From: Desulfobacterales bacterium
GTDB lineage: Bacteria > Desulfobacterota > Desulfobacteria > Desulfobacterales > SG8-13
Direction: 5' to 3'
Assembly (NCBI GenBank): GCA_051155755.1
Contig: DAXETY010000010.1
Coordinates: forward strand, 9,530-73,529
DNA: 64,000 nucleotides
Within the stretch, counting starts at the first letter, position 1. Each line of letters opens with the position of its first letter. Below are positions 22,384-32,174 of the stretch, in pieces. The notes below the pieces were generated by a model, which was not told the DNA's origin, ran no database searches, and was given only the letters and a program-made list of their open reading frames with translations. The translations under genes were made by a program, and so were the position numbers.

Positions 22384-22857
22384 TCAGTATTCCGGATGAC
22401 ATTCGATGCAACCGGAAGGACCGGCTTCGGGCAGTTTTTCGTCCAGCACCATGTAGGATTTCGCCCGCTCCAGATTCCTGGCGCGGATTTCCCGGTGGCA
22501 GCCGATGCAGGACTGGTGAAAGGCATACTTGTAGTATTTGATGGCCTCGTCCGAATAAGAAAGGTAATCGGAGGGCTCCTCCGGCGCTGTGGCCTGGTCG
22601 TGGCAGCCGGTGGCCATGCAGCCTTGAATCGGCTCTTCGCCCTGCCACTTGTGGTGACAGACCCTGCATTCGGTCGCGAAATGACGGGAATGGGGAAAAT
22701 CCACCGGTGCTTTGGTCGCCTCGACGCCTTCAGGCGGTTTGAGCGTGATCACCCCCATGGGAACCACCATCTCATCGCTTTCACCGGAAACTTCCAATGA
22801 CAGTGCCGCAGTCAACAAAAGCGCCAAACAGACAATCACCAGTGCTTTTCGCTCCAT
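22384..22857 (-). CDS. Periplasmic tetraheme cytochrome c3 (class III)
   Basis: Signal peptide; FPHSRH, CRVCHH, CMATGCH, AFH..CIGCH, CIECH (4 heme motifs). Confidence 0.92.
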   Translation of the reverse strand: MERKALVIVCLALLLTAALSLEVSGESDEMVVPMGVITLKPPEGVEATKAPVDFPHSRHFATECRVCHHKWQGEEPIQGCMATGCHDQATAPEEPSDYLSYSDEAIKYYKYAFHQSCIGCHREIRARNLERAKSYMVLDEKLPEAGPSGCIECHPEY

Positions 22858-23206
22858 CCTCGCCCCCTTCGGCCAGAAACATTGATAATTCAATCAATTG
22901 CATATCGATCGGTTCCGACGCGCTGCAAGCATTGTTTGCTATATTATTTGAAAAATTGCAACCCCAAAATTTGTACCGGCTCGAACCCATGGCGGAAACG
23001 AACACCCCCGGCGATTCGGCGTCAAAGAAGGGGCGAATCGCACGGTCCGGATTCCATTCGGCCGGATGTCCGCGGTCCGGCATAAACGACGAAAACGGTC
23101 GTTCGCTTTGGGTTTGACAGTACCTGAGATTTTATCTATAAAAAATGTTTACACTCAAATTCCTGTCCGTTATTTCCCCGTTCCACCCATGCATTTCGAG
23201 GCGGTT

Positions 23207-24235
23207 TTGGAGCGCACGCAACTTACCGGAAAAACTGAAACCATCATCAGTATCGTGATTCTGACGCTGCTGGTCGCAATCGGTACATCCGTTTTTTACC
23301 GGCAGTCTTTCTTTAACCCGGCTGTGCTTACGGCCACAGTGCCGGATCGGGCATCCACGGCCGAAAAGGACCAACAAGACGGGTCACCGGCGACAAGCAT
23401 CGTGCCGTTGCCGGGTTCGGTCATCCCGCTCTCTGCGCCGGAACGCTTCGACCCCGAAACCCTCTCGGACAAAATCAACGGTAAGGCCGAGCTCTACCTG
23501 TCGGCCGGTTTTCAGCGCCTGGAAACCCAGCGCTTTCGACTCCGCGATACAGCCGAAGCGTGGATGGAGCTTTTTTTGTATGAAATGGGAAACCCGGAAA
23601 ACGCCTTTGCAGTTTACAGCAGCCAGCAGCGGGACAATGCGCAGCCGCTGGATGTCAGCCGGTTCGCCTATCGGACGGAAAATGCCCTTTACTGGGTTCA
23701 TGGCAGCAACTACGCCGAGCTGATTGCATCCGAACCTTCCGAATCCCTTCAGCAGGCCATGCTGGCCATTGCAAAATCGATGGTTTCCGGCCGGAAAGTC
23801 GAAAAACAGGGCGTGGACCTGCCTTCGATCTTCCCGACCCGGGATCGAATCAAGGACAACATCACGCTGATTCCCAGTGACGCGTTCGGCTTTTCCAGAC
23901 TGGACCGGGTCTACACCGCCGAGTATCAAATCCCCGAGGGCACTTTCACCGCGTTTCTGTCCGACCGCGGCACACCGGAAAAAGCCCTGGACGCCGCCGA
24001 GGCTTATCGAAGCTTTCTGCTGGAGTTCGGCGGCCGGCAGCTCGAGTCGCCCGTAAAAGGCGAAACGGCTTCCGGACTCATGGTGGTGGAAATCCTGGGC
24101 AGCTATGAAGTGATCTTCTCCCGGGGGCGTTTTCTGGCCGGTGTCCACGAAGCCCCCGCAATCATGCCGGCCCTGGAGCTGGCAAAATCCATGAAATCAC
24201 AAATCGATGCATTCATTACCTCCCAATCCCGTTGA
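23207..24235 (+). CDS. Membrane-anchored DUF6599-like protein
   Basis: N-terminal TM; L.D.INGKAELYL..GF, LYEM....NAFAVYS. Start uncertain (TTG 23207 after GAGG; ORF opens at 23066). Confidence 0.7.
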   Translation: MERTQLTGKTETIISIVILTLLVAIGTSVFYRQSFFNPAVLTATVPDRASTAEKDQQDGSPATSIVPLPGSVIPLSAPERFDPETLSDKINGKAELYLSAGFQRLETQRFRLRDTAEAWMELFLYEMGNPENAFAVYSSQQRDNAQPLDVSRFAYRTENALYWVHGSNYAELIASEPSESLQQAMLAIAKSMVSGRKVEKQGVDLPSIFPTRDRIKDNITLIPSDAFGFSRLDRVYTAEYQIPEGTFTAFLSDRGTPEKALDAAEAYRSFLLEFGGRQLESPVKGETASGLMVVEILGSYEVIFSRGRFLAGVHEAPAIMPALELAKSMKSQIDAFITSQSR

Positions 24236-25205
24236 TCCCGACCGCCGGCGATTTCTGCTGCGGCTCACCAAGACCGGGCTTGCCGCCCTTGCAGCCGGCG
24301 CAATCGGTTACCGGTTTTTCGATCCGAACCCGCCCAGCGGAGCGCCGAAGGAGGGCTCCGGTGCCCGGCTGGCCGATTTTTCAATAAACGGAAGCGGACC
24401 GCAAATGGCCATCGTGCGCGGCGGTCAGCGCGAAAAAACCGTCCAGTCGGCTTTGGCTGCGCTGGGCGGCATCGAGCGTTTCGTTCGCCCCGGCGACCGG
24501 GTCCTGCTCAAGGTAAATGCGGCCTTTGCATCGCCGCCTTCGTTGAATGCCACCAGCCATCCGGAGCTGGTGAAAACCGTCGCCGGTTTGTGCCTGAAGG
24601 CCGGCGCCGGCCGGGTGATCGTCACCGACAACCCCATCAACGACCCCCAGAGCTGTTTCGACCTGACCGGGATATCCCGGGCCGCCAAAGAAAGCGGTGC
24701 CGAAGTCATGTTGCCGGCAACGCGGTATTTCCGTCCCGTAACGGTACCCGGCGCCACCCTGCTCGAAAACTGGCCGGTGCTGTTCGAACCGTTCCGGTTT
24801 GTAAACAAGGTCATCGGCCTGGCACCGGTCAAGGATCACCACCGCAGCGGGGCTTCCATGACGCTGAAAAACTGGTACGGTCTGCTGGGCGGCCGACGCA
24901 ATATCTTTCATCAGGACATTCACACCATCATAACCGAACTGGGAATGCTGATGCGGCCGACCCTGGTGATCCTGGACGGAACCCAGACCATGATGCAAAA
25001 TGGACCTACAGGCGGGTCGCTGTCCGATCTGAAGGATACAAACACCATGATCGTCAGCACCGACGCGGTGGCCGCAGATGCGTTCGGTGCCTCGCTGCTG
25101 GAGCGCCGGCTCAGCGATCTGCCCCACATTCAGTCTGCCGCCGAGGCCGGTGCCGGTACGGCCGACTGGCGCTCGCTCAACCCGGCGATGATCGAAATAG
25201 GATGA
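24207..25205 (+). CDS. DUF362 domain protein with twin-arginine signal
   Basis: DRRRFLL, LGGIERFV.PG..VLLKVN, KDH, MTLKNWYG, D.VA.D. Confidence 0.88.
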   Translation: MHSLPPNPVDPDRRRFLLRLTKTGLAALAAGAIGYRFFDPNPPSGAPKEGSGARLADFSINGSGPQMAIVRGGQREKTVQSALAALGGIERFVRPGDRVLLKVNAAFASPPSLNATSHPELVKTVAGLCLKAGAGRVIVTDNPINDPQSCFDLTGISRAAKESGAEVMLPATRYFRPVTVPGATLLENWPVLFEPFRFVNKVIGLAPVKDHHRSGASMTLKNWYGLLGGRRNIFHQDIHTIITELGMLMRPTLVILDGTQTMMQNGPTGGSLSDLKDTNTMIVSTDAVAADAFGASLLERRLSDLPHIQSAAEAGAGTADWRSLNPAMIEIG

Positions 25206-25325
25206 GATGGAAAAAGCGGGAAATCCCCTTGTGCGGGACCCGGCGGAATGAAACCGGCCGGCCGCCGGGCCGCATCCGAGGCCGGGCCGCCGTAAACGAT
25301 TCGATTTGATCACAGCAGGAACGCA

Positions 25326-27272
25326 ATGAACATCCGTACGACCCGTCGTATCAGTCAGGGATTTTTTCTGGTTCTGTTTCTATGGTTCTGTGTCACCACC
25401 ACCCTGGGCGACAACTGGTGGCAGCTGCGGGGCTGGCCGGTAAACTGGTTGATACAGCTCGATCCGCTCACGGCCCTGGCGACCCTGTTGACCACCGGCA
25501 CGATCTATGCCGGTCTCCTGTGGGCCCTGGCCACGGTGCTGTTGACCCTGGTGCTGGGACGCTTCTTTTGCGGCTGGCTCTGCCCGTTCGGAACCATGCA
25601 CCAGATCATCGGTTACCTCGGCCGCCGGGGCATGTCGACATCCGCCCAAGCCCGCCGCAACCAGTATGATCCCAAACAATCCATCAAGTACTGGATCCTG
25701 ATTTTTCTGCTGGCCGTCGCCGCCGCCGAACTGTTGATCGATCTGCTGCGCCTCCCGCTGCGAGGTCCGATTGCGGCGCTTTGGGCCGCTATCGTGCTGC
25801 TGGCCATTTCGGCCGTGTGGATGCTGCGCGGCCGGATGCGCCGGGGAGTGATCTTTTTCGTGTTGGCGGCACTGGGATGGTTTTCGACCGCAATGCTGGC
25901 CGGAGACGGCCAGCTGCCCTCGGCCTCCCTTCAGATCGGTTTGCTCGATCCGCTGGCCCTGGTCCACCGATCGGTCAACCTCGCGTTGCTGCCGCTGGCG
26001 GATCAGTCGGCGGTCGATCTTTCCGTCAACCCCCGTTATTACCGGGGCGCCTGGCTCATCGGCGGCATTTTCGCAGCCGCCCTGCTGCTGAACCTGAAGG
26101 TGCCGCGGTTTTACTGCCGCTACGTGTGTCCCCTGGGCGCCCTGCTGGGCATTCTGGCCCGCAATGCACTGTGGCGATTCGGAAAAACCGAGGCCGAATG
26201 TATCGACTGCCGGGTGTGCGAAAAAAACTGTGAAGGTGCCTGCGCTCCGGCATCGACCATCCGCATTCACGAATGCGTCCTGTGCACCAACTGTCTGAAA
26301 GACTGCCGCCACGACCTGATGCGCTACCGCATGCGGCCCTCGGCAGCCGGCGAGATTGCGGCCCCGAATCTGTCCCGCCGTCAGTTCGTGAGCGCCACGG
26401 CCGCCGGTCTGGCCGCAATACCGCTGCTGCGGCTCGACGGACACCTGGCCGCGGGCTGGAATCCCGAGCTCGTCCGGCCGCCGGGGGCGCTTGCCGAAGC
26501 ACAATTTTTATCGAGATGCATCAAGTGCGGCCAGTGCATGCGGGTGTGTCCGACCAACGTGATTCACCCGGCCGGCCTTCAGGCCGGCATCGAGGGTCTG
26601 TGGACGCCGGTGCTCGACTTTCGGCTGGGAACCAGCGGTTGCCAGTACAAGTGCATTGCCTGCGGCAACATCTGCCCGACAGCGGCCATTCGGCCCATCA
26701 GTCTGGACGAGCGCCTGGGACGCAACCAGTTTTCCGCAACCGGCCCGATCCGGATCGGCACGGCCTTTGTCGACCGGGGCAGATGCCTTCCCTGGGCCAT
26801 GGGCACGCCCTGTATCGTCTGCGAAGAAAATTGTCCCGTCAGTCCCAAGGCCATCGTAACCCGGGTGGAATTTGCGCCGCTGCCGGCAACCCAATCGGTT
26901 TTCCGAATCCAGGAAGCCGCTCCCCGCGAAGTGTGGCTGCAAAACGCCGACCTGCTGCCGGGGCAATTCAGCGGCGGGGATTATTTTTGCCGGGTTGGCG
27001 CAGCGCCCGATGCCGGACCGCGTCGGATTCTGGCCAATACGGACCGAACGCTGGAAATCGCGCCGGAAAATCCCTGGAATCCGCCGCCGGAGCCGGGCAG
27101 CCGCATCGAAATCCTGATCCGCCTGCAGCAGCCCCAGGTCGTGCCCGAACGCTGCATCGGATGCGGGGTGTGCCAGCATGAGTGCCCGGTGCGGGGAAAA
27201 AGAGCCATCCGGGTCACGGCGGAAAATGCCACCCGGGATCCGGAAAAAGCCATGACCATCGCCGGGAGGTAG
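25326..27272 (+). CDS. Membrane polyferredoxin, NapH/MauN-like domain fused to NapG/MauM-like domain
   Basis: GRFFCGWLCPFG, RFYCRYVCPLGA, multiple CxxCxxCxxxCP, internal SRRQF and RPPGA..E..F...CIKCGQC. Confidence 0.9.
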   Translation: MNIRTTRRISQGFFLVLFLWFCVTTTLGDNWWQLRGWPVNWLIQLDPLTALATLLTTGTIYAGLLWALATVLLTLVLGRFFCGWLCPFGTMHQIIGYLGRRGMSTSAQARRNQYDPKQSIKYWILIFLLAVAAAELLIDLLRLPLRGPIAALWAAIVLLAISAVWMLRGRMRRGVIFFVLAALGWFSTAMLAGDGQLPSASLQIGLLDPLALVHRSVNLALLPLADQSAVDLSVNPRYYRGAWLIGGIFAAALLLNLKVPRFYCRYVCPLGALLGILARNALWRFGKTEAECIDCRVCEKNCEGACAPASTIRIHECVLCTNCLKDCRHDLMRYRMRPSAAGEIAAPNLSRRQFVSATAAGLAAIPLLRLDGHLAAGWNPELVRPPGALAEAQFLSRCIKCGQCMRVCPTNVIHPAGLQAGIEGLWTPVLDFRLGTSGCQYKCIACGNICPTAAIRPISLDERLGRNQFSATGPIRIGTAFVDRGRCLPWAMGTPCIVCEENCPVSPKAIVTRVEFAPLPATQSVFRIQEAAPREVWLQNADLLPGQFSGGDYFCRVGAAPDAGPRRILANTDRTLEIAPENPWNPPPEPGSRIEILIRLQQPQVVPERCIGCGVCQHECPVRGKRAIRVTAENATRDPEKAMTIAGR

Positions 27273-27308
27273 CCGCGATCCAACGGACCGGGTTTTTCCA
27301 CATAAACC

Positions 27309-27465
27309 TTGACGATCTCGTAAAAAGTCCAAATTTCATTAAGGTCTGTCATTCCCGCGCAGGCGAAAATATATAAATTATAGTTATTACAGTATCTTAA
27401 ACTCGAGATCCTCGCCTGCGCGGGGATGACACACTGTTGAGACTGACTTTTTACGAGATCGACAA
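27309..27465. mobile_element. MITE-like element (copy 1) with 21-bp terminal inverted repeats and internal GTCATTCCCGCG REP-like arms
   Basis: TTGACGATCTCGTAAAAAGTC ... GACTTTTTACGAGATCGACAA (20/21); inner GTCATTCCCGCGCAGGCG...CGCCTGCGCGGGGATGAC; AT-rich core. Confidence 0.85.
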
Positions 27466-27605
27466 TGTTGAGAAATTACCGAAACACCCAATGAAGTTGA
27501 CCGGTAAAGAGTCCCGCGGTTTCTTCCGGGATCCACCGGAGAACCGGATCGACTTGTTTCCGTCCACCTTAAAATGCGAAAAATCACACCGGAGGGTTGT
27601 ATTGT

Positions 27606-28823
27606 ATGAGTTCGAAACCGATTTCAAGTTGTTCGCGCCGCAATTTTCTCAAGGTCGCCGGCGCAGCCGGCCTGAGCACCCTGATCGCACCGAACGCGAT
27701 CCGATCGTCCGCAGCGGCCGAACCGGACGGGGAGGTCGCAATGCCCCGCCGGCCCTTTGGCCGCACCGGCGTCGAAGTGCCGATTCTCTCCCTGGGGGGC
27801 ATGTTTGACATTCCCAACAATCAGCTGCTTCTGCGCCAGGCGGTACGCTGGGGCGTAACCTACTGGGACACGGCCAATTCCTACGGCGGCGGACGCAGCG
27901 AGCGCGGCATCGGCAAATATTTTTCGCGGTTCCCGCAAGATCGCCAAAAAATCTTTCTGGTTTCGAAAACCGGCGCCTGGACGATCGGCGGCATGACCGA
28001 AGACCTGGAAGAATCCCTGGAGCGGCTGCAGACCGATTACATCGACCTGCTGTTCGTTCACGGAATCAGCAGCATTCGTGAAATGAACGACGATGTGCGC
28101 GCCTGGGGCGAAAAAGCCAAATCCCAGGGCAAGATTCGCTTTTTCGGCTTCAGCACCCACAGCAACATGGCCCAGTGTCTGCTGGACGCATCCAAGCTGG
28201 GCTGGATCGACGGCATCATGATGACCTACAATTACCGGCTGATGCACGACGAGGACATGCAGGCGGCCGTTGCGGCCTGCAACCGGGCCGGCATCGGCCT
28301 GACCGCCATGAAGACCCAAGGCGGCGGTCCGGTGCGCACCAACAGTGAAAGCGAAATGCAGCTGGCGGGAAAATTTCTGCGCAAAGGGTACACCGACGGT
28401 CAGGCCAAGCTCAAGGCGGTCTGGGAAGAACCGCAGATTGCCAGCATCTGCTCCCAAATGCCGAACCTGACATTGCTGATGTCCAACGTGGCCGCCGCTG
28501 TAGATCGCACCAAAATCAGCGCCTTCGAACGAGACCTGCTCCAGCGTCATGCGCGTGAAACCCGGCAGTCTTACTGTGCCGGCTGCCGCAGTCGCTGTGA
28601 GGAAGTCCTGGCCGAGACGGTTCCGATCGGAGACGTCATGCGCTGCCTGATGTACAGTCGCAGCTATGGCGAGCTGGAGCGTGCGAGGTCTGAATTCAAG
28701 GGCCTTCCGGAAACCGCCCGCCGCCGGCTGGCCGGCCTGGATTACACCGCGGCCGAGCGGCAGTGTCCGCAGGGGTTGCCCATCGGAGAGCTGATGCGCG
28801 AGGCGGTCGACGAACTGGCCTGA
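27606..28823 (+). CDS. Tat-signal aldo/keto reductase with C-terminal Fe-S cysteine cluster
   Basis: SRRNFLK; R.FGRTG..V..LSLG; WDTANSY, VSK, SLERLQTDYIDL..VH; CAGCRSRC...C...CPQG. Confidence 0.9.
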   Translation: MSSKPISSCSRRNFLKVAGAAGLSTLIAPNAIRSSAAAEPDGEVAMPRRPFGRTGVEVPILSLGGMFDIPNNQLLLRQAVRWGVTYWDTANSYGGGRSERGIGKYFSRFPQDRQKIFLVSKTGAWTIGGMTEDLEESLERLQTDYIDLLFVHGISSIREMNDDVRAWGEKAKSQGKIRFFGFSTHSNMAQCLLDASKLGWIDGIMMTYNYRLMHDEDMQAAVAACNRAGIGLTAMKTQGGGPVRTNSESEMQLAGKFLRKGYTDGQAKLKAVWEEPQIASICSQMPNLTLLMSNVAAAVDRTKISAFERDLLQRHARETRQSYCAGCRSRCEEVLAETVPIGDVMRCLMYSRSYGELERARSEFKGLPETARRRLAGLDYTAAERQCPQGLPIGELMREAVDELA

Positions 28824-28846
28824 ATTTTAATGCAAGGGAGTGCGAA

Positions 28847-29167
28847 ATGGACGTTCGATTTGTCTACATGACCGCCGGCAGCCTGGATGAAGCCCGCAAG
28901 ATCGCCCGCGAACTGGTGGAGGCCAAGCTGGCGGCCTGTGTCAATCTGATCGACAACATGAACTCGTTCTACCTTTGGGACGGCCGGCTGCAGGATGACC
29001 GCGAAGTCGTTCTGATTGCCAAGACCACCGCCGCCCGCATCGCCGATCTGACCGCCCGGGTCCGGGCGATTCACAGCTATGATTGTCCCTGCGTGGTCAG
29101 CCTGCCGGTGGACGGCGGCAATCGAGCGTTTCTGGATTGGATTGCCGCCGAAGTCACTGCGGTGTAA
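28847..29167 (+). CDS. cutA: Divalent-cation tolerance protein CutA
   Basis: IARELVE.KLAACVN, S.Y.W.G, KT, HSYDCP. Confidence 0.93.
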   Translation: MDVRFVYMTAGSLDEARKIARELVEAKLAACVNLIDNMNSFYLWDGRLQDDREVVLIAKTTAARIADLTARVRAIHSYDCPCVVSLPVDGGNRAFLDWIAAEVTAV

Positions 29168-29368
29168 TCGGCCAAAAAATCCTTCCCTTTTGGCCGACAG
29201 TGTGGTTAGAGACCGGTTCCAGAAATCCTGTCCGGGGCGGGTGCGCTTCGTTCGATTTCGGTTGCCGGGCTTTTGCAACCCGGTCGCCGGGCAGGACTCG
29301 GGTTTACTCCGGGACAAGGATGATTATTATTCAGGATCAACTTCTGGCCCAACAAGGAGGCAGCTATC

Positions 29369-29881
29369 ATGTACAACAAAGTCGTTATGGATCATTTTCG
29401 CAATCCCCGCAATGTGGGCACCATCGAAGATGCCGACGGCGTCGGAGAAGTCGGCAACCCGCTTTGCGGCGACATGATGACCATTTACCTGAAAATCGAT
29501 GACGATCATATCGAAGATATCAAGTTTCAGACCTTCGGCTGTGGGTCGGCCATCGCCGTATCGAGTATGCTGACGGAAATCGCCAAGGGCAAGTCTCTGG
29601 AGGAGGCCAAAAAAATCACCAACAAGGATGTGGCCAAGGCCCTCGAGGGGCTGCCCAAAAACAAGCTGCATTGCTCGAACCTGGGGGCCGACGCGCTCCA
29701 GATGGCAATCAAAAACTACGAAGACCGCAAAGCCGGCAAACCCACCCCCGAACCGATCCGAAAAGACCAGCACGAACACTCCCACGGAGACAAGTGCTAC
29801 TGTCCGTATTGCGACATTGAAATTGCCGACGGGGTCAACTTCTGCGAAGCCTGCCAGACCGATCTCGAGGAAGAACATTAA
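29369..29881 (+). CDS. iscU: IscU/NifU-type Fe-S scaffold with C-terminal His-rich linker and Cys4 zinc ribbon
   Basis: HFRNPRNVG, NPLCGD, FGCGSAIA, KLHCS; tail HEHSH..CYCPYC...CEAC; AGGAGG RBS. Confidence 0.93.
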   Translation: MYNKVVMDHFRNPRNVGTIEDADGVGEVGNPLCGDMMTIYLKIDDDHIEDIKFQTFGCGSAIAVSSMLTEIAKGKSLEEAKKITNKDVAKALEGLPKNKLHCSNLGADALQMAIKNYEDRKAGKPTPEPIRKDQHEHSHGDKCYCPYCDIEIADGVNFCEACQTDLEEEH

Positions 29882-29917
29882 TCCGCATTGCGCCGCAATG
29901 AATCGGGGGGATGGAAA

Positions 29918-31093
29918 ATGAAGTACATCAATCTGGATCATATTTCCGCCAAACCGCTGCTGCCGGAAGTCAAGCAGGCGATGATCGAAGCCATCCAGGC
30001 CGACTACCACAATCCCTCCAGCCAGCATAAGGCCGGTGAGCTTGCCGCTGAAAAATTGCAGCAGGCCCGGGAATCGGTGGCCCGGCTGATCAATTGTGCC
30101 AACTCCAAGGAAGTGATTTTCGGCTCGGGCGGCACCGAGTCTGTCAATCATGCCATCAAGGGGGTGGCAATGGCCAATGCGGAAAAAGGCAAGCACATCG
30201 TCATCTCCAACATCGAACACAATGCGGTGATTCGCAGTGTGCGACGTTTGAAGTCGATGGGATTCAAAGCCACGTCGGTGTCGGTTGACGAACAGGGCCG
30301 GGTGAACCCCCAGGAGGTGGCCGACGCCATCACCGATGAAACCATTCTGGTTTCCATCATGCACAGCAACAATGAAACCGGAACCATTCAACCGATCGAA
30401 GAAATCGCCAAAATCACCCGCGACAAAAAGGTGATATTTCATACCGACGCCGTGGACTCGGTGGGCGTCGTACCCATCGACGTGCAGAAAATGGGAGTGG
30501 ATCTGCTCAGTTTTGCCGCCAACACTTTCAACGGCCCCACCGGCGTCGGCGGCCTTTACATTCGGCGCGGCACCCGCATATTCCCGATCCTGGACGGCGG
30601 CGTGCAGGAGCACAACAAGCGCGCCGGAACCGAAAACCTGGTCGGCATCATTGGGACCGGCGTCGCCGCCGAGGTGGCCCGTGAGAACCTGCCCCAATGG
30701 CAGGAACACCTGCTGCGGCTGAAGAAAAAACTCCTTGGCGAACTGCCCGAATATATCGATGAATACATCATCAACACGCATCCGGAGTTCAGCCTGCCCA
30801 ACATGGTGTCGCTTTCGGTGAAATATATCGAAGGCGAAAGCGTCATGCTGATGCTGGACGACGAAAATCTCGCCGTCTCCACCCGGTCCGCCTGCGCCAC
30901 CGGGTCGCTGCGGGCCTCCCACGTGCTGATTTCCCTGGGACTGAGCCACGCCGACGCCCAGGGCACGCTGGTGGTGTCCTTCGGCAAGGACAACGATGAA
31001 AAAGACATCGAGCATTTTCTGAAGGTCCTTAAAAACGTGGTGGTCACGTTGCGAAACATGTCGCCGCTTTATCAAAAAGTATCCCAGGGCTAA
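29918..31093 (+). CDS. iscS: IscS/NifS-like protein lacking the PLP-binding lysine
   Basis: Class V aminotransferase fold motifs (NPSS, GGTES, EHNAV, NNETG, RAGTEN, SACATG), but SxHK is replaced by AANT. Confidence 0.9.
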   Translation: MKYINLDHISAKPLLPEVKQAMIEAIQADYHNPSSQHKAGELAAEKLQQARESVARLINCANSKEVIFGSGGTESVNHAIKGVAMANAEKGKHIVISNIEHNAVIRSVRRLKSMGFKATSVSVDEQGRVNPQEVADAITDETILVSIMHSNNETGTIQPIEEIAKITRDKKVIFHTDAVDSVGVVPIDVQKMGVDLLSFAANTFNGPTGVGGLYIRRGTRIFPILDGGVQEHNKRAGTENLVGIIGTGVAAEVARENLPQWQEHLLRLKKKLLGELPEYIDEYIINTHPEFSLPNMVSLSVKYIEGESVMLMLDDENLAVSTRSACATGSLRASHVLISLGLSHADAQGTLVVSFGKDNDEKDIEHFLKVLKNVVVTLRNMSPLYQKVSQG

Positions 31094-31106
31094 GGAGCGT
31101 GGTGCG

Positions 31107-32174
31107 GTGCCACGGTCGAAACCCATCCAAAAGCCGAAACCATCCGGCACAGTCAAAAAGATCAATCTGGCCCTGCAGGGGGGCGGCGCCCACGGCGCTT
31201 TCACCTGGGGTGTGCTGGACCGCCTGCTGGAAGCCGAAAATGTGGAAATCAGTGCCATCAGCGGCACCAGTGCCGGTGCCATTAACGCGGTGGTGGTGGC
31301 CGATGGCCTCATGGCCGGCGGAAGAAGCCGGGCCCGGGAGGCACTGGCCCGCTTTTGGAAAGCAGTCAGCCATGCGGCGGCATTCAGCCCGCTGCGCCGC
31401 ACGCCGCTCGATACCCTGTCGGGGAATTGGAACCTGGATTATTCCCCGGGGTATCTGTTCTTCGATCTGTTCAGCCGCATGGCGTCCCCTTATCAGCTCA
31501 ATCCATTTAACCTAAACCCCTTGCAGGATCTGCTGGTCGATCAGATCGATTTCGAACGGGTGCGCAGCTGCGACAAAATGAAGCTGTTCATCAGTGCCAC
31601 CCATGTTCGCAACGGACAGGTGCAGGTCTTCGAACGCAACCAACTGACGGCCGAGGCCGTCATGGCCTCTGCCTGTCTGCCCCAGATTTATCAGGCCGTA
31701 TCGGTCGATGGGGAGGATTACTGGGACGGTGGATATGCCGGCAACCCGGTCCTGTTTCCCTTTGCCTACCGCAGTGACACGAGGGATATCGTCATTGTTC
31801 AGATCAATCCGCTCACCTGCCGGGAGACGCCGACCACGGCACGCGAAATCCTCAACCGGGTCAATGAAATCACCTTCAACGCCAGCCTGCTGCACGAATT
31901 GCGGGCCATTGAATTCGTAGGGCGCATGCTCGAAGAGGGCAGTCTCGATCCGCAGCGCTATCGCAAGATGCTGGTGCATATCATCGCCGACGCCGAAGGC
32001 TTCGCCGCGCTGAATGCTTCCAGCAAAATGAATACCGAGTGGGGCTTTCTCGAACAACTCCACACTGCGGGCCGAACAACGGCTGAAGAATGGCTGAAGA
32101 CCCATTTCGACGATCTCGGAGAGCGATCCTCGGTGGATCTGCGCAGCCTGCTCCACGGATGTGAATCGCGCTGA
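31107..32174 (+). CDS. Patatin-like phospholipase/esterase
   Basis: LALQGGGAHG, GTSAG, WDGGY.GNP. Confidence 0.92.
   Translation: MPRSKPIQKPKPSGTVKKINLALQGGGAHGAFTWGVLDRLLEAENVEISAISGTSAGAINAVVVADGLMAGGRSRAREALARFWKAVSHAAAFSPLRRTPLDTLSGNWNLDYSPGYLFFDLFSRMASPYQLNPFNLNPLQDLLVDQIDFERVRSCDKMKLFISATHVRNGQVQVFERNQLTAEAVMASACLPQIYQAVSVDGEDYWDGGYAGNPVLFPFAYRSDTRDIVIVQINPLTCRETPTTAREILNRVNEITFNASLLHELRAIEFVGRMLEEGSLDPQRYRKMLVHIIADAEGFAALNASSKMNTEWGFLEQLHTAGRTTAEEWLKTHFDDLGERSSVDLRSLLHGCESR

Follow-up and report, generated by a model that had tools for sequence, protein, structure and literature searches.

An IscS homolog without its catalytic lysine

What does a cysteine desulfurase homolog do once it has lost the lysine that forms the Schiff base with pyridoxal 5′-phosphate (PLP)? 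The question is raised by an iscS gene in a 64,000-nt stretch of DNA from a Desulfobacterales bacterium (GCA_051155755.1, contig DAXETY010000010.1, positions 9,530-73,529 of the forward strand; here called the window, from whose first letter coordinates are counted). An earlier note on this DNA had read the product as a noncatalytic IscS that helps to assemble iron-sulfur (Fe-S) clusters from ambient sulfide. Here, we report that the lysine loss is genuine, is maintained in a bacterial family and is coupled to the loss of two further active-site residues. The best explanation, to which we assign a probability of roughly 0.55, is that the noncatalytic IscS docks the scaffold protein IscU and lends its loop cysteine, Cys326, while a [2Fe-2S] cluster is built, with cellular sulfide as the likely sulfur source.

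Residues were mapped by pairwise alignment to IscS of E. coli K-12 (152 of 387 residues identical), which locates the following features:

29918..31093, plus strand: lysine-less IscS homolog with a type I desulfurase fold; intact open reading frame (ORF) of 391 amino acids (aa) (alignment, profile scores, AlphaFold model)
30455..30457 (GAC), plus strand: Asp180, at the site of the PLP-binding Gln (E. coli Q183; E. coli alignment)
30521..30526, plus strand: Asn202-Thr203, at the site of His205-Lys206, the PLP Schiff-base lysine (E. coli alignment; the motif reads AANT)
30830..30841, plus strand: EGES motif, start of the predicted IscU-contacting helix (E. coli E309-S312; residue map and interface description in PMC2854127)
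30884..30895, plus strand: RSAC loop, with the kept Cys326 and with Arg323, which is specific to the clade (other IscS have Gly) (alignment, 226-sequence survey)
30971..30973 (GTG), plus strand: Val352, at the substrate-carboxylate Arg site (E. coli R354; E. coli alignment)

In E. coli numbering, the PLP lysine K206 is replaced by T203 of the window protein (codon ACT, 30524-30526) and the preceding H205 by N202; in addition, YSATTP reads HISAKP, K211 is T208 and G325 is R323. The loop cysteine C328 is retained as C326 (TGC, 30893-30895), as are H104, D180, N155, E156, T76 and T243. Every residue change listed in the earlier note was present, as was the kept cysteine in an intact, full-length ORF. 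The roles assigned here to T76, N155, T243, R354 and K211 (E. coli numbering) are those usual for the family. Compared with E. coli IscS and other type I desulfurases (EC 2.8.1.7), the window protein lacks the Schiff-base Lys, the Gln of DAxQ and the substrate-binding Arg, whereas the stacking His, the pyridine-binding Asp and the persulfide-loop Cys are all in place.

The protein belongs to the class V PLP fold (PF00266, 237.5 bits) and scores below the curated NCBIfam cut-offs for NifS and IscS (TIGR03402, 424 versus 530.75; TIGR02006, 343 versus 643). Its AlphaFold model (predicted local distance difference test [pLDDT] score of 87) has a TM-score of 0.91-0.94 to NFS1, Archaeoglobus fulgidus IscS and E. 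coli IscS. The EGE motif of E. coli IscS opens the helix that touches IscU (PMC2854127); this contact helix and the C-terminal SPL are common to both proteins. Given that the E. coli variants K206A and Q183E have no desulfurase activity (PMC9978102), and by analogy with A. fulgidus IscS, the window protein very probably lacks this activity as well. Residues matching two of the window protein also occur in PDB entries 9wep, 9wew, 9wfe and related entries, which are variants of one 406-aa cysteine desulfurase that keeps its lysine: these have Ile at the Ile9 position, and 9wfe also has Val at the Val352 (Arg) position.

The substitutions are real and maintained

Sequencing error at the lysine codon was excluded, because all 16 relatives compared carry a non-Lys codon at the site (14 Thr, with each of the four ACN codons in use, and 2 Asn); agreement across the site also comes from an independent study, one contig of which spans 30109-31190 with 3 differing letters in 1082. 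Lysine was absent from all 120 best homologs of 7863 (77-97% identical), every one of which reads TRSACATG. At 80 genome loci of homologs, 74 lacked the lysine, 1 ended before the site and 5 were normal Clostridia proteins. The ratio of nonsynonymous to synonymous substitution rates (dN/dS) was 0.07-0.16 in 15 of 16 comparisons of the window gene with relatives (the remaining one was saturated), and its median was 0.10 across 371 pairs, which are not independent. The window gene is under purifying selection.

A decaying paralog or sequencing artifact might seem plausible in a genome that also encodes a normal NifS. Set against this are the intact ORF, the loss common to all 120 top homologs, a dN/dS near 0.1, the presence of lysine-less IscS in at least 22 families of the phylum and the concurring contig, and we regard the idea as extremely improbable; a pseudogene and a sequencing error were both rejected on the common loss, the dN/dS and the contig. 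The view that selection rather than decay explains the changes is upheld, and neither counter-possibility raised with it, a codon error or HK-retaining close relatives alongside a pseudogene-like dN/dS, was borne out. RNA-library contigs from two studies cover iscU-iscS, one near-identical piece spanning the junction (29735-30003); such contigs are no proof of transcription.

Catalytic residues are lost together while the cysteine is kept

To describe the family, we used a phylum sample of 300 Desulfobacterota genomes, in which the 89 best-ranked matches outside the window's genome were examined. Lysine-less IscS was found in at least 73 of the 300 genomes, in 22 families (a lower bound). All loci together gave 226 distinct sequences, a set biased toward the window protein, since likeness to it was the criterion of choice. 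Each of the 62 Lys-bearing sequences also holds the Gln, His and Arg, whereas none of the 164 lysine-less sequences has the Gln or the Arg (the Arg column includes 3 gaps and 1 X); the coupling is therefore not chance. Cys326, His101 and Asp177 are retained in 164/164 lysine-less sequences, as is EGE or DGE, the IscU-docking motif. EGE is missing from 17 of 25 normal desulfurases that have no nearby iscU.

A profile search of 1.84 billion representatives showed the same coupling among the best 150, which are distant cluster representatives. The Lys, Gln, Arg and Cys were all present in 125 of these, and 13 of the 14 full-length lysine-less proteins also lacked Gln and Arg and had the Cys; the rest were 4 lysine-less fragments and 8 mixed, partial or exceptional cases. 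Named lysine-less relatives (10 of 17 clusters looked up) include representatives of Latescibacterota, Zixibacteria, Gemmatimonadota, Chloroflexota, Nitrospirae, Odinarchaeum and Thermoplasmatota. These lysine-less proteins carry database names as cysteine desulfurases.

Exceptions to the coupling were P0125 (Lys kept, Gln and Arg lost), which clusters with the lysine-less branch, P0200 (Lys lost, Gln and Arg kept) and P0203 (Arg alone lost). In P0172 (515 aa), a normal IscS carries an IscU domain as a C-terminal fusion. NifS-like domains in open frames of ∼1130-1170 aa recur in the phylum (G171:C59, G077:C27, G232:C285, G247:C1 and others; P0157) and are probably a fusion family.

The close clade of the window protein, defined by R or K at position 323, has 114 members. 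Asn202 is invariant in all of them; the lysine site itself varies (T, Q, P, S, A, N or others). The suggestion that the lysine of SAKP might stand in as catalyst was rejected: Lys12 occurs in 30 of 114 close relatives and is no mark of the family. No other conserved substitute was found, the only lysines more than 80% conserved in the close clade being 81, 90, 269 and 387, outside the motif.

This pattern bears on whether the pocket might retain some chemistry, with PLP or pyridoxamine 5′-phosphate (PMP) held noncovalently and supporting slow desulfuration or another reaction on a carboxylate-free substrate. Invariant or nearly invariant His101, Asp177, Thr73, Asn152 and Glu153 would fit such a role, whereas the lack of a substitute lysine, the drift of the Lys site among T, Q, P, S, A and N and the replacement of Thr238, a PLP phosphate contact, by Ala in 21 of 114 members would not. 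Likewise, A. fulgidus IscS crystallized with PMP or PLP and E. coli K206A still binds some PLP, yet PMP was still bound when the lysine was restored in A. fulgidus IscS (D199K variant, 4r5f) (PMC8918507, PMC9978102). We consider residual or new chemistry quite unlikely.

Relation to Archaeoglobus IscS and other known systems

A. fulgidus IscS (IscS2), known with its IscU from PDB entries 4eb5, 4eb7, 4hvk and 4r5f, has Asp at the lysine site, binds PMP or PLP and is inactive; it lends one Cys to the cluster on IscU D35A (PMC8918507, PMC7585200). Both it and the window protein lack the Schiff-base Lys, Gln and Arg and keep the Cys, both have Asn before the lysine site, both come from sulfate-reducing hosts, and the window model has a TM-score of 0.89-0.92 to A. 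fulgidus IscS. The likeness drawn in the earlier note is supported, and its account of the archaeal protein was accurate: this has SAKP, ND for HK and no Arg (alignment; supplement of PMC7585200). The two also differ. The window type has Thr (or Q, P, S, A) where A. fulgidus IscS has Asp, and GPTG and TRSAC instead of GPKG and TGSAC; the archaeal pattern SSND..GPKG is absent, the window sequence reading AANTFNGPTG, and identity is only 42%.

Among 119 relatives of the ND-type protein P0141, 118 have ND and 1 has NE. These proteins (Thermoplasmatota, Euryarchaeota, Desulfosporosinus) belong to the Archaeoglobus type, with 510 bits against 4eb5 and 430 against the next hit, whereas the window protein scores 326 bits against A. 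fulgidus IscS and 331 against an unrelated desulfurase. The window protein grouped apart from the ND type in both free trees (FastTree, 203 rows; quick IQ-TREE, 64 rows), in which, as in all our trees, motif columns were dropped and ND-type stand-ins took the place of A. fulgidus IscS itself. Forcing all lysine-less rows into one clade was not rejected by the approximately unbiased (AU) test (P = 0.56 with 39 rows; P = 0.41 with 64 rows; LG+F+G4, fast searches). The free trees suggest an origin separate from the Archaeoglobus type without establishing it, a single origin not being rejected. By analogy, the window protein likely works as Archaeoglobus IscS-IscU does.

Other systems resemble the window pair in part. 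Methanosarcina acetivorans IscS1-IscU1 (MA0808/MA0807), an uncharacterized pair, also shows Lys to Thr, a kept Cys and iscU upstream; its IscU1 has an extra C-terminal part, and the pair coexists with an active IscS (PMC7585200). In contrast to the window pair, IscS1 still has the substrate Arg but not the stacking His, IscU1 has no cysteine in its extension and the neighbors are DsrE- and SirA-like (supplement of PMC7585200). MIS (MisS-MisU) likewise consists of two genes, a desulfurase homolog and a single-domain scaffold, with no chaperones or carriers nearby (PMC13066941), but MisS is defined as a cysteine desulfurase, whereas the window IscS lacks the catalytic residues and its scaffold has an added Cys-rich tail. 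SMS (SmsBC) is a precedent for sulfide as direct sulfur source, since smsBC rescues E. coli isc/suf loss with sulfide and not with cysteine (PMC13066941); SmsBC are SufB/SufC homologs, unrelated to the window pair.

The partner IscU carries a cysteine-rich tail

Two points that the earlier note did not contain are an iscU gene directly upstream, ending 36 bases before iscS, and the CxCxxC-CxxC tail of its product:

29369..29881, plus strand: IscU/MisU-type scaffold, 170 aa (TIGR03419, 198.4 bits against a cut-off of 187.9; residue map)
29795..29854, plus strand: C-terminal CxCxxC-x10-CxxC of IscU, preceded by a His-rich linker; tail predicted to bind metal (zinc-ribbon-like; motif survey)

The cluster ligands C33, D35, C58, H101 and C102 are all present in the window IscU and in 149/149 partner rows of lysine-less IscS (some genomes counted twice). 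The HscA motif LPPVK of the ISC type is replaced by LPKNK, and the best solved relative is A. fulgidus IscU (4eb5_C), from which the tail is absent (supplement of PMC7585200). Each of the 108 distinct IscU proteins paired with close-clade IscS has the tail, as do roughly half of those paired with lysine-less IscS outside this clade; of 20 IscU/NifU proteins beside Lys-bearing IscS, none has it. Pfam zinc-ribbon matches to it fall only below cut-off, and a comparison with the ESM Atlas was uninformative (best score, 0.79). We infer from its sequence that the tail may bind metal.

Where close-clade loci have sufficient flanking sequence, iscU adjoins iscS in 111 of 112; for the remaining lysine-less loci the count is 38 of 47. 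Prediction of the IscS-IscU complex gave a weak pass (score of 0.60 versus 0.00 for the best control; run agreement of at least 82%, partner pLDDT of at least 77), which probably stems from likeness to solved IscS-IscU pairs. On benchmarking, 116 of 157 solved pairs attained the mark, as did 2 of 215 mismatched ones; 18 of the 157 and both mismatches did so at 0.60 or below. From the characterized proteins, it is likely that the window IscS binds IscU and acts in cluster assembly; on the same basis, we infer that Cys326 would be a cluster ligand. Several genomes hold two different lysine-less IscS-IscU pairs (L231-L245), and one (L227, G163:C264) has a window-type and an Archaeoglobus-like SSND-type IscS, each adjoining an iscU.

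Sulfide, other Fe-S systems and alternative roles

The earlier note took the host for a sulfate reducer, and the window genome (85% complete) has dsrA above cut-off. Among 73 carriers of lysine-less IscS, dsrA was found in 61 (19 of 22 families); of 80 comparison genomes lacking a close match, 43 have it. The latter are the first 80 of 100 genomes with a weak best match, their Lys status was not read individually, and kin are not independent. The link is an enrichment, neither exclusive nor required. As to whether lysine-less homologs are confined to sulfidogenic anaerobes, the association stands; confinement to sulfate reducers was rejected, with 12 of 73 carriers lacking a detected dsrA and relatives in several other phyla.

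In 6 of 10 genomes hand-picked as likely cases, every IscU/NifU match adjoins a lysine-less IscS. Four of these (G006, G081, G113 and G277; 94-99% complete drafts, all with dsrA) had no SufB match; G006, G081 and G113 each encode a single normal NifS-like protein, which stands alone and has neither EGES nor the SP helix at its C terminus. Of the 73 carriers, 17 have SufB, and the window genome, at 85% completeness, showed no match to it. For these four draft genomes there is strong circumstantial evidence that the lysine-less pair may be the sole scaffold system. Since no other scaffold or SufB was found there, the pair should itself assemble clusters. This argues against a role in which IscS only caps, stabilizes or regulates a cluster on IscU, as chaperone, store or sensor without de novo assembly, with the tail sensing metal or redox state. 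Such a role would accord with the complete NifU-NifS that coexists in the window genome and most carriers, the absence of the HscA motif and of nearby chaperone genes, and the extra Cys-rich tail; we hold it to be improbable, though less so than residual chemistry.

The foremost alternative is a persulfide relay, in which IscS is itself inactive but Cys326 is charged by a normal NifS, a TusA/DsrE-type carrier or polysulfide and hands the sulfur to IscU, a step that corresponds to the latter half of the usual IscS reaction. Cys326 and the docking motif are invariant, as a relay would need, a normal type I desulfurase (verified or presumed) is present in 68 of 73 carriers, and the clade-specific Arg/Lys three residues before the Cys could stabilize a persulfide anion; the lysine-less iscS1 of M. 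acetivorans also adjoins DsrE- and SirA-like genes (supplement of PMC7585200). However, the 76 neighborhoods showed no conserved gene for a sulfur carrier next to iscU-iscS, docking motifs are missing from the stand-alone desulfurases of G006, G081 and G113, and in the solved A. fulgidus complex the Cys is an iron ligand (PMC8918507). We judge the relay unlikely, yet the most serious of the three competing explanations, followed by capping or sensing and then by residual or new PLP chemistry.

Several observations weigh against cluster assembly from sulfide with Cys326 as ligand. The canonical desulfurase that the earlier note suggested looking for elsewhere in the genome was found: contig C122 carries a three-domain NifU-NifS pair of the normal kind, with the Lys, Gln and Arg in place. 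Another NifS-like gene, also HK-bearing, lies in two pieces at contig ends (G000 C169 end, C128 start), and a cysteine synthase is also present. A sulfide route is therefore not needed in the window genome, and the idea that iscS encodes its only desulfurase was rejected. A Lys-bearing type I desulfurase, and with it a possible sulfur supply in trans, was verified or presumed in 68 of 73 carriers: 54 have a match that exceeds the NifS cut-off, of which some were read, and in 14 the HK was read directly. No other type I desulfurase was found in the remaining five (G025, G063, G277, G099 and G126), although the three of them that were read throughout, G025, G063 and G277, encode a distant class V protein with HK and Cys. 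In 12 of 73 carriers dsrA was not found, which may reflect incomplete genomes, and 43 of 80 comparison genomes hold dsrA without a close lysine-less match. The close clade shows no variation at His101, Asp177, Asn152 and Glu153 of the PLP pocket, which a pure scaffold would have no obvious need to keep. Finally, because the cluster-bound A. fulgidus structure used the IscU D35A mutant (PMC8918507), whereas Asp35 is intact in the window IscU, the Cys-ligand state may be nonphysiological. Sulfide as the sulfur source is a hypothesis even for Archaeoglobus (PMC8918507, section 10).

Weighing these points, we still favor noncatalytic assembly from sulfide. Without the PLP lysine, Gln and Arg, IscS would be unable to draw sulfur from cysteine; as a pseudo-enzyme it would dock the neighboring IscU through the kept docking motif and lend Cys326 as a transient ligand while the [2Fe-2S] cluster forms. 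Cellular sulfide, plus iron, would build the cluster, and the IscU tail might be an iron- or zinc-binding module that feeds iron or electrons to the scaffold. In the window genome, this would provide a cysteine-sparing second route beside the normal NifU-NifS, and in some relatives the main route.

Locus surroundings

Upstream of iscU lie two candidate expression signals:

29303..29330, plus strand: sigma-70-like promoter candidate TTTACT-16-TATTAT (consensus match, 9/12)
29355..29360, plus strand: ribosome-binding site AGGAGG of iscU (sequence)

The region has 2 promoter matches versus 1.4 in shuffles, which is weak alone; promoter-like words recur upstream of iscU in relatives (TCTTTACT, 12/108; AATGATTA, 14/108). 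No common operator was found there beyond promoter- and ribosome-binding-site-like words. No chaperone, ferredoxin or carrier gene adjoins iscU-iscS in the window, and across 76 neighborhoods only iscU is constant, other neighbors occurring in at most about one-fifth. A run of redox genes upstream (22384-29167) accompanies the pair in no more than 10-15 of 76 loci. It includes two ORFs labeled by eye, one cytochrome-like with multiple CxxCH (22384-22893, minus strand) and one for a Cys-rich membrane protein resembling polyferredoxins (25326-27272); an ORF similar to aldo/keto reductases, whose start is twin-arginine-like (27597-28823), and cutA are also part of it. Directly downstream is a patatin-like phospholipase gene (31107-32174; weak matches), which is not a conserved neighbor.

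Implications

Cluster assembly by an inactive IscS together with IscU is a problem known from one hyperthermophilic archaeon (PMC8918507). The concept is already in print for Archaeoglobus and has been remarked on for Methanosarcina, which limits the surprise; in the openly accessible literature (subscription journals and their supplements, including the MIS-defining paper, not covered), we found no paper on a bacterial lysine-less IscS family or on the IscU tail. That at least a quarter of the Desulfobacterota genomes sampled carry a member of one conserved bacterial family points to a maintained design, not an oddity. The family offers many more proteins and a far wider host range, including genomes in which the pair is seemingly the only scaffold, and the IscU tail is a concrete, undescribed part. 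Database annotation calls the lysine-less proteins cysteine desulfurases, so a survey that scores MIS systems as dependent on cysteine may misjudge them. More tentatively, and with less confidence than in the role proposed for the window pair, these proteins could represent a widespread Fe-S branch in many anaerobic bacteria and archaea, in which a pseudo-desulfurase and a scaffold build clusters from sulfide. In Desulfobacterota the tail would deliver iron or electrons, in some sulfate reducers the pair would be the sole machine, and the Lys, Gln and Arg may have been lost repeatedly with the Cys retained.
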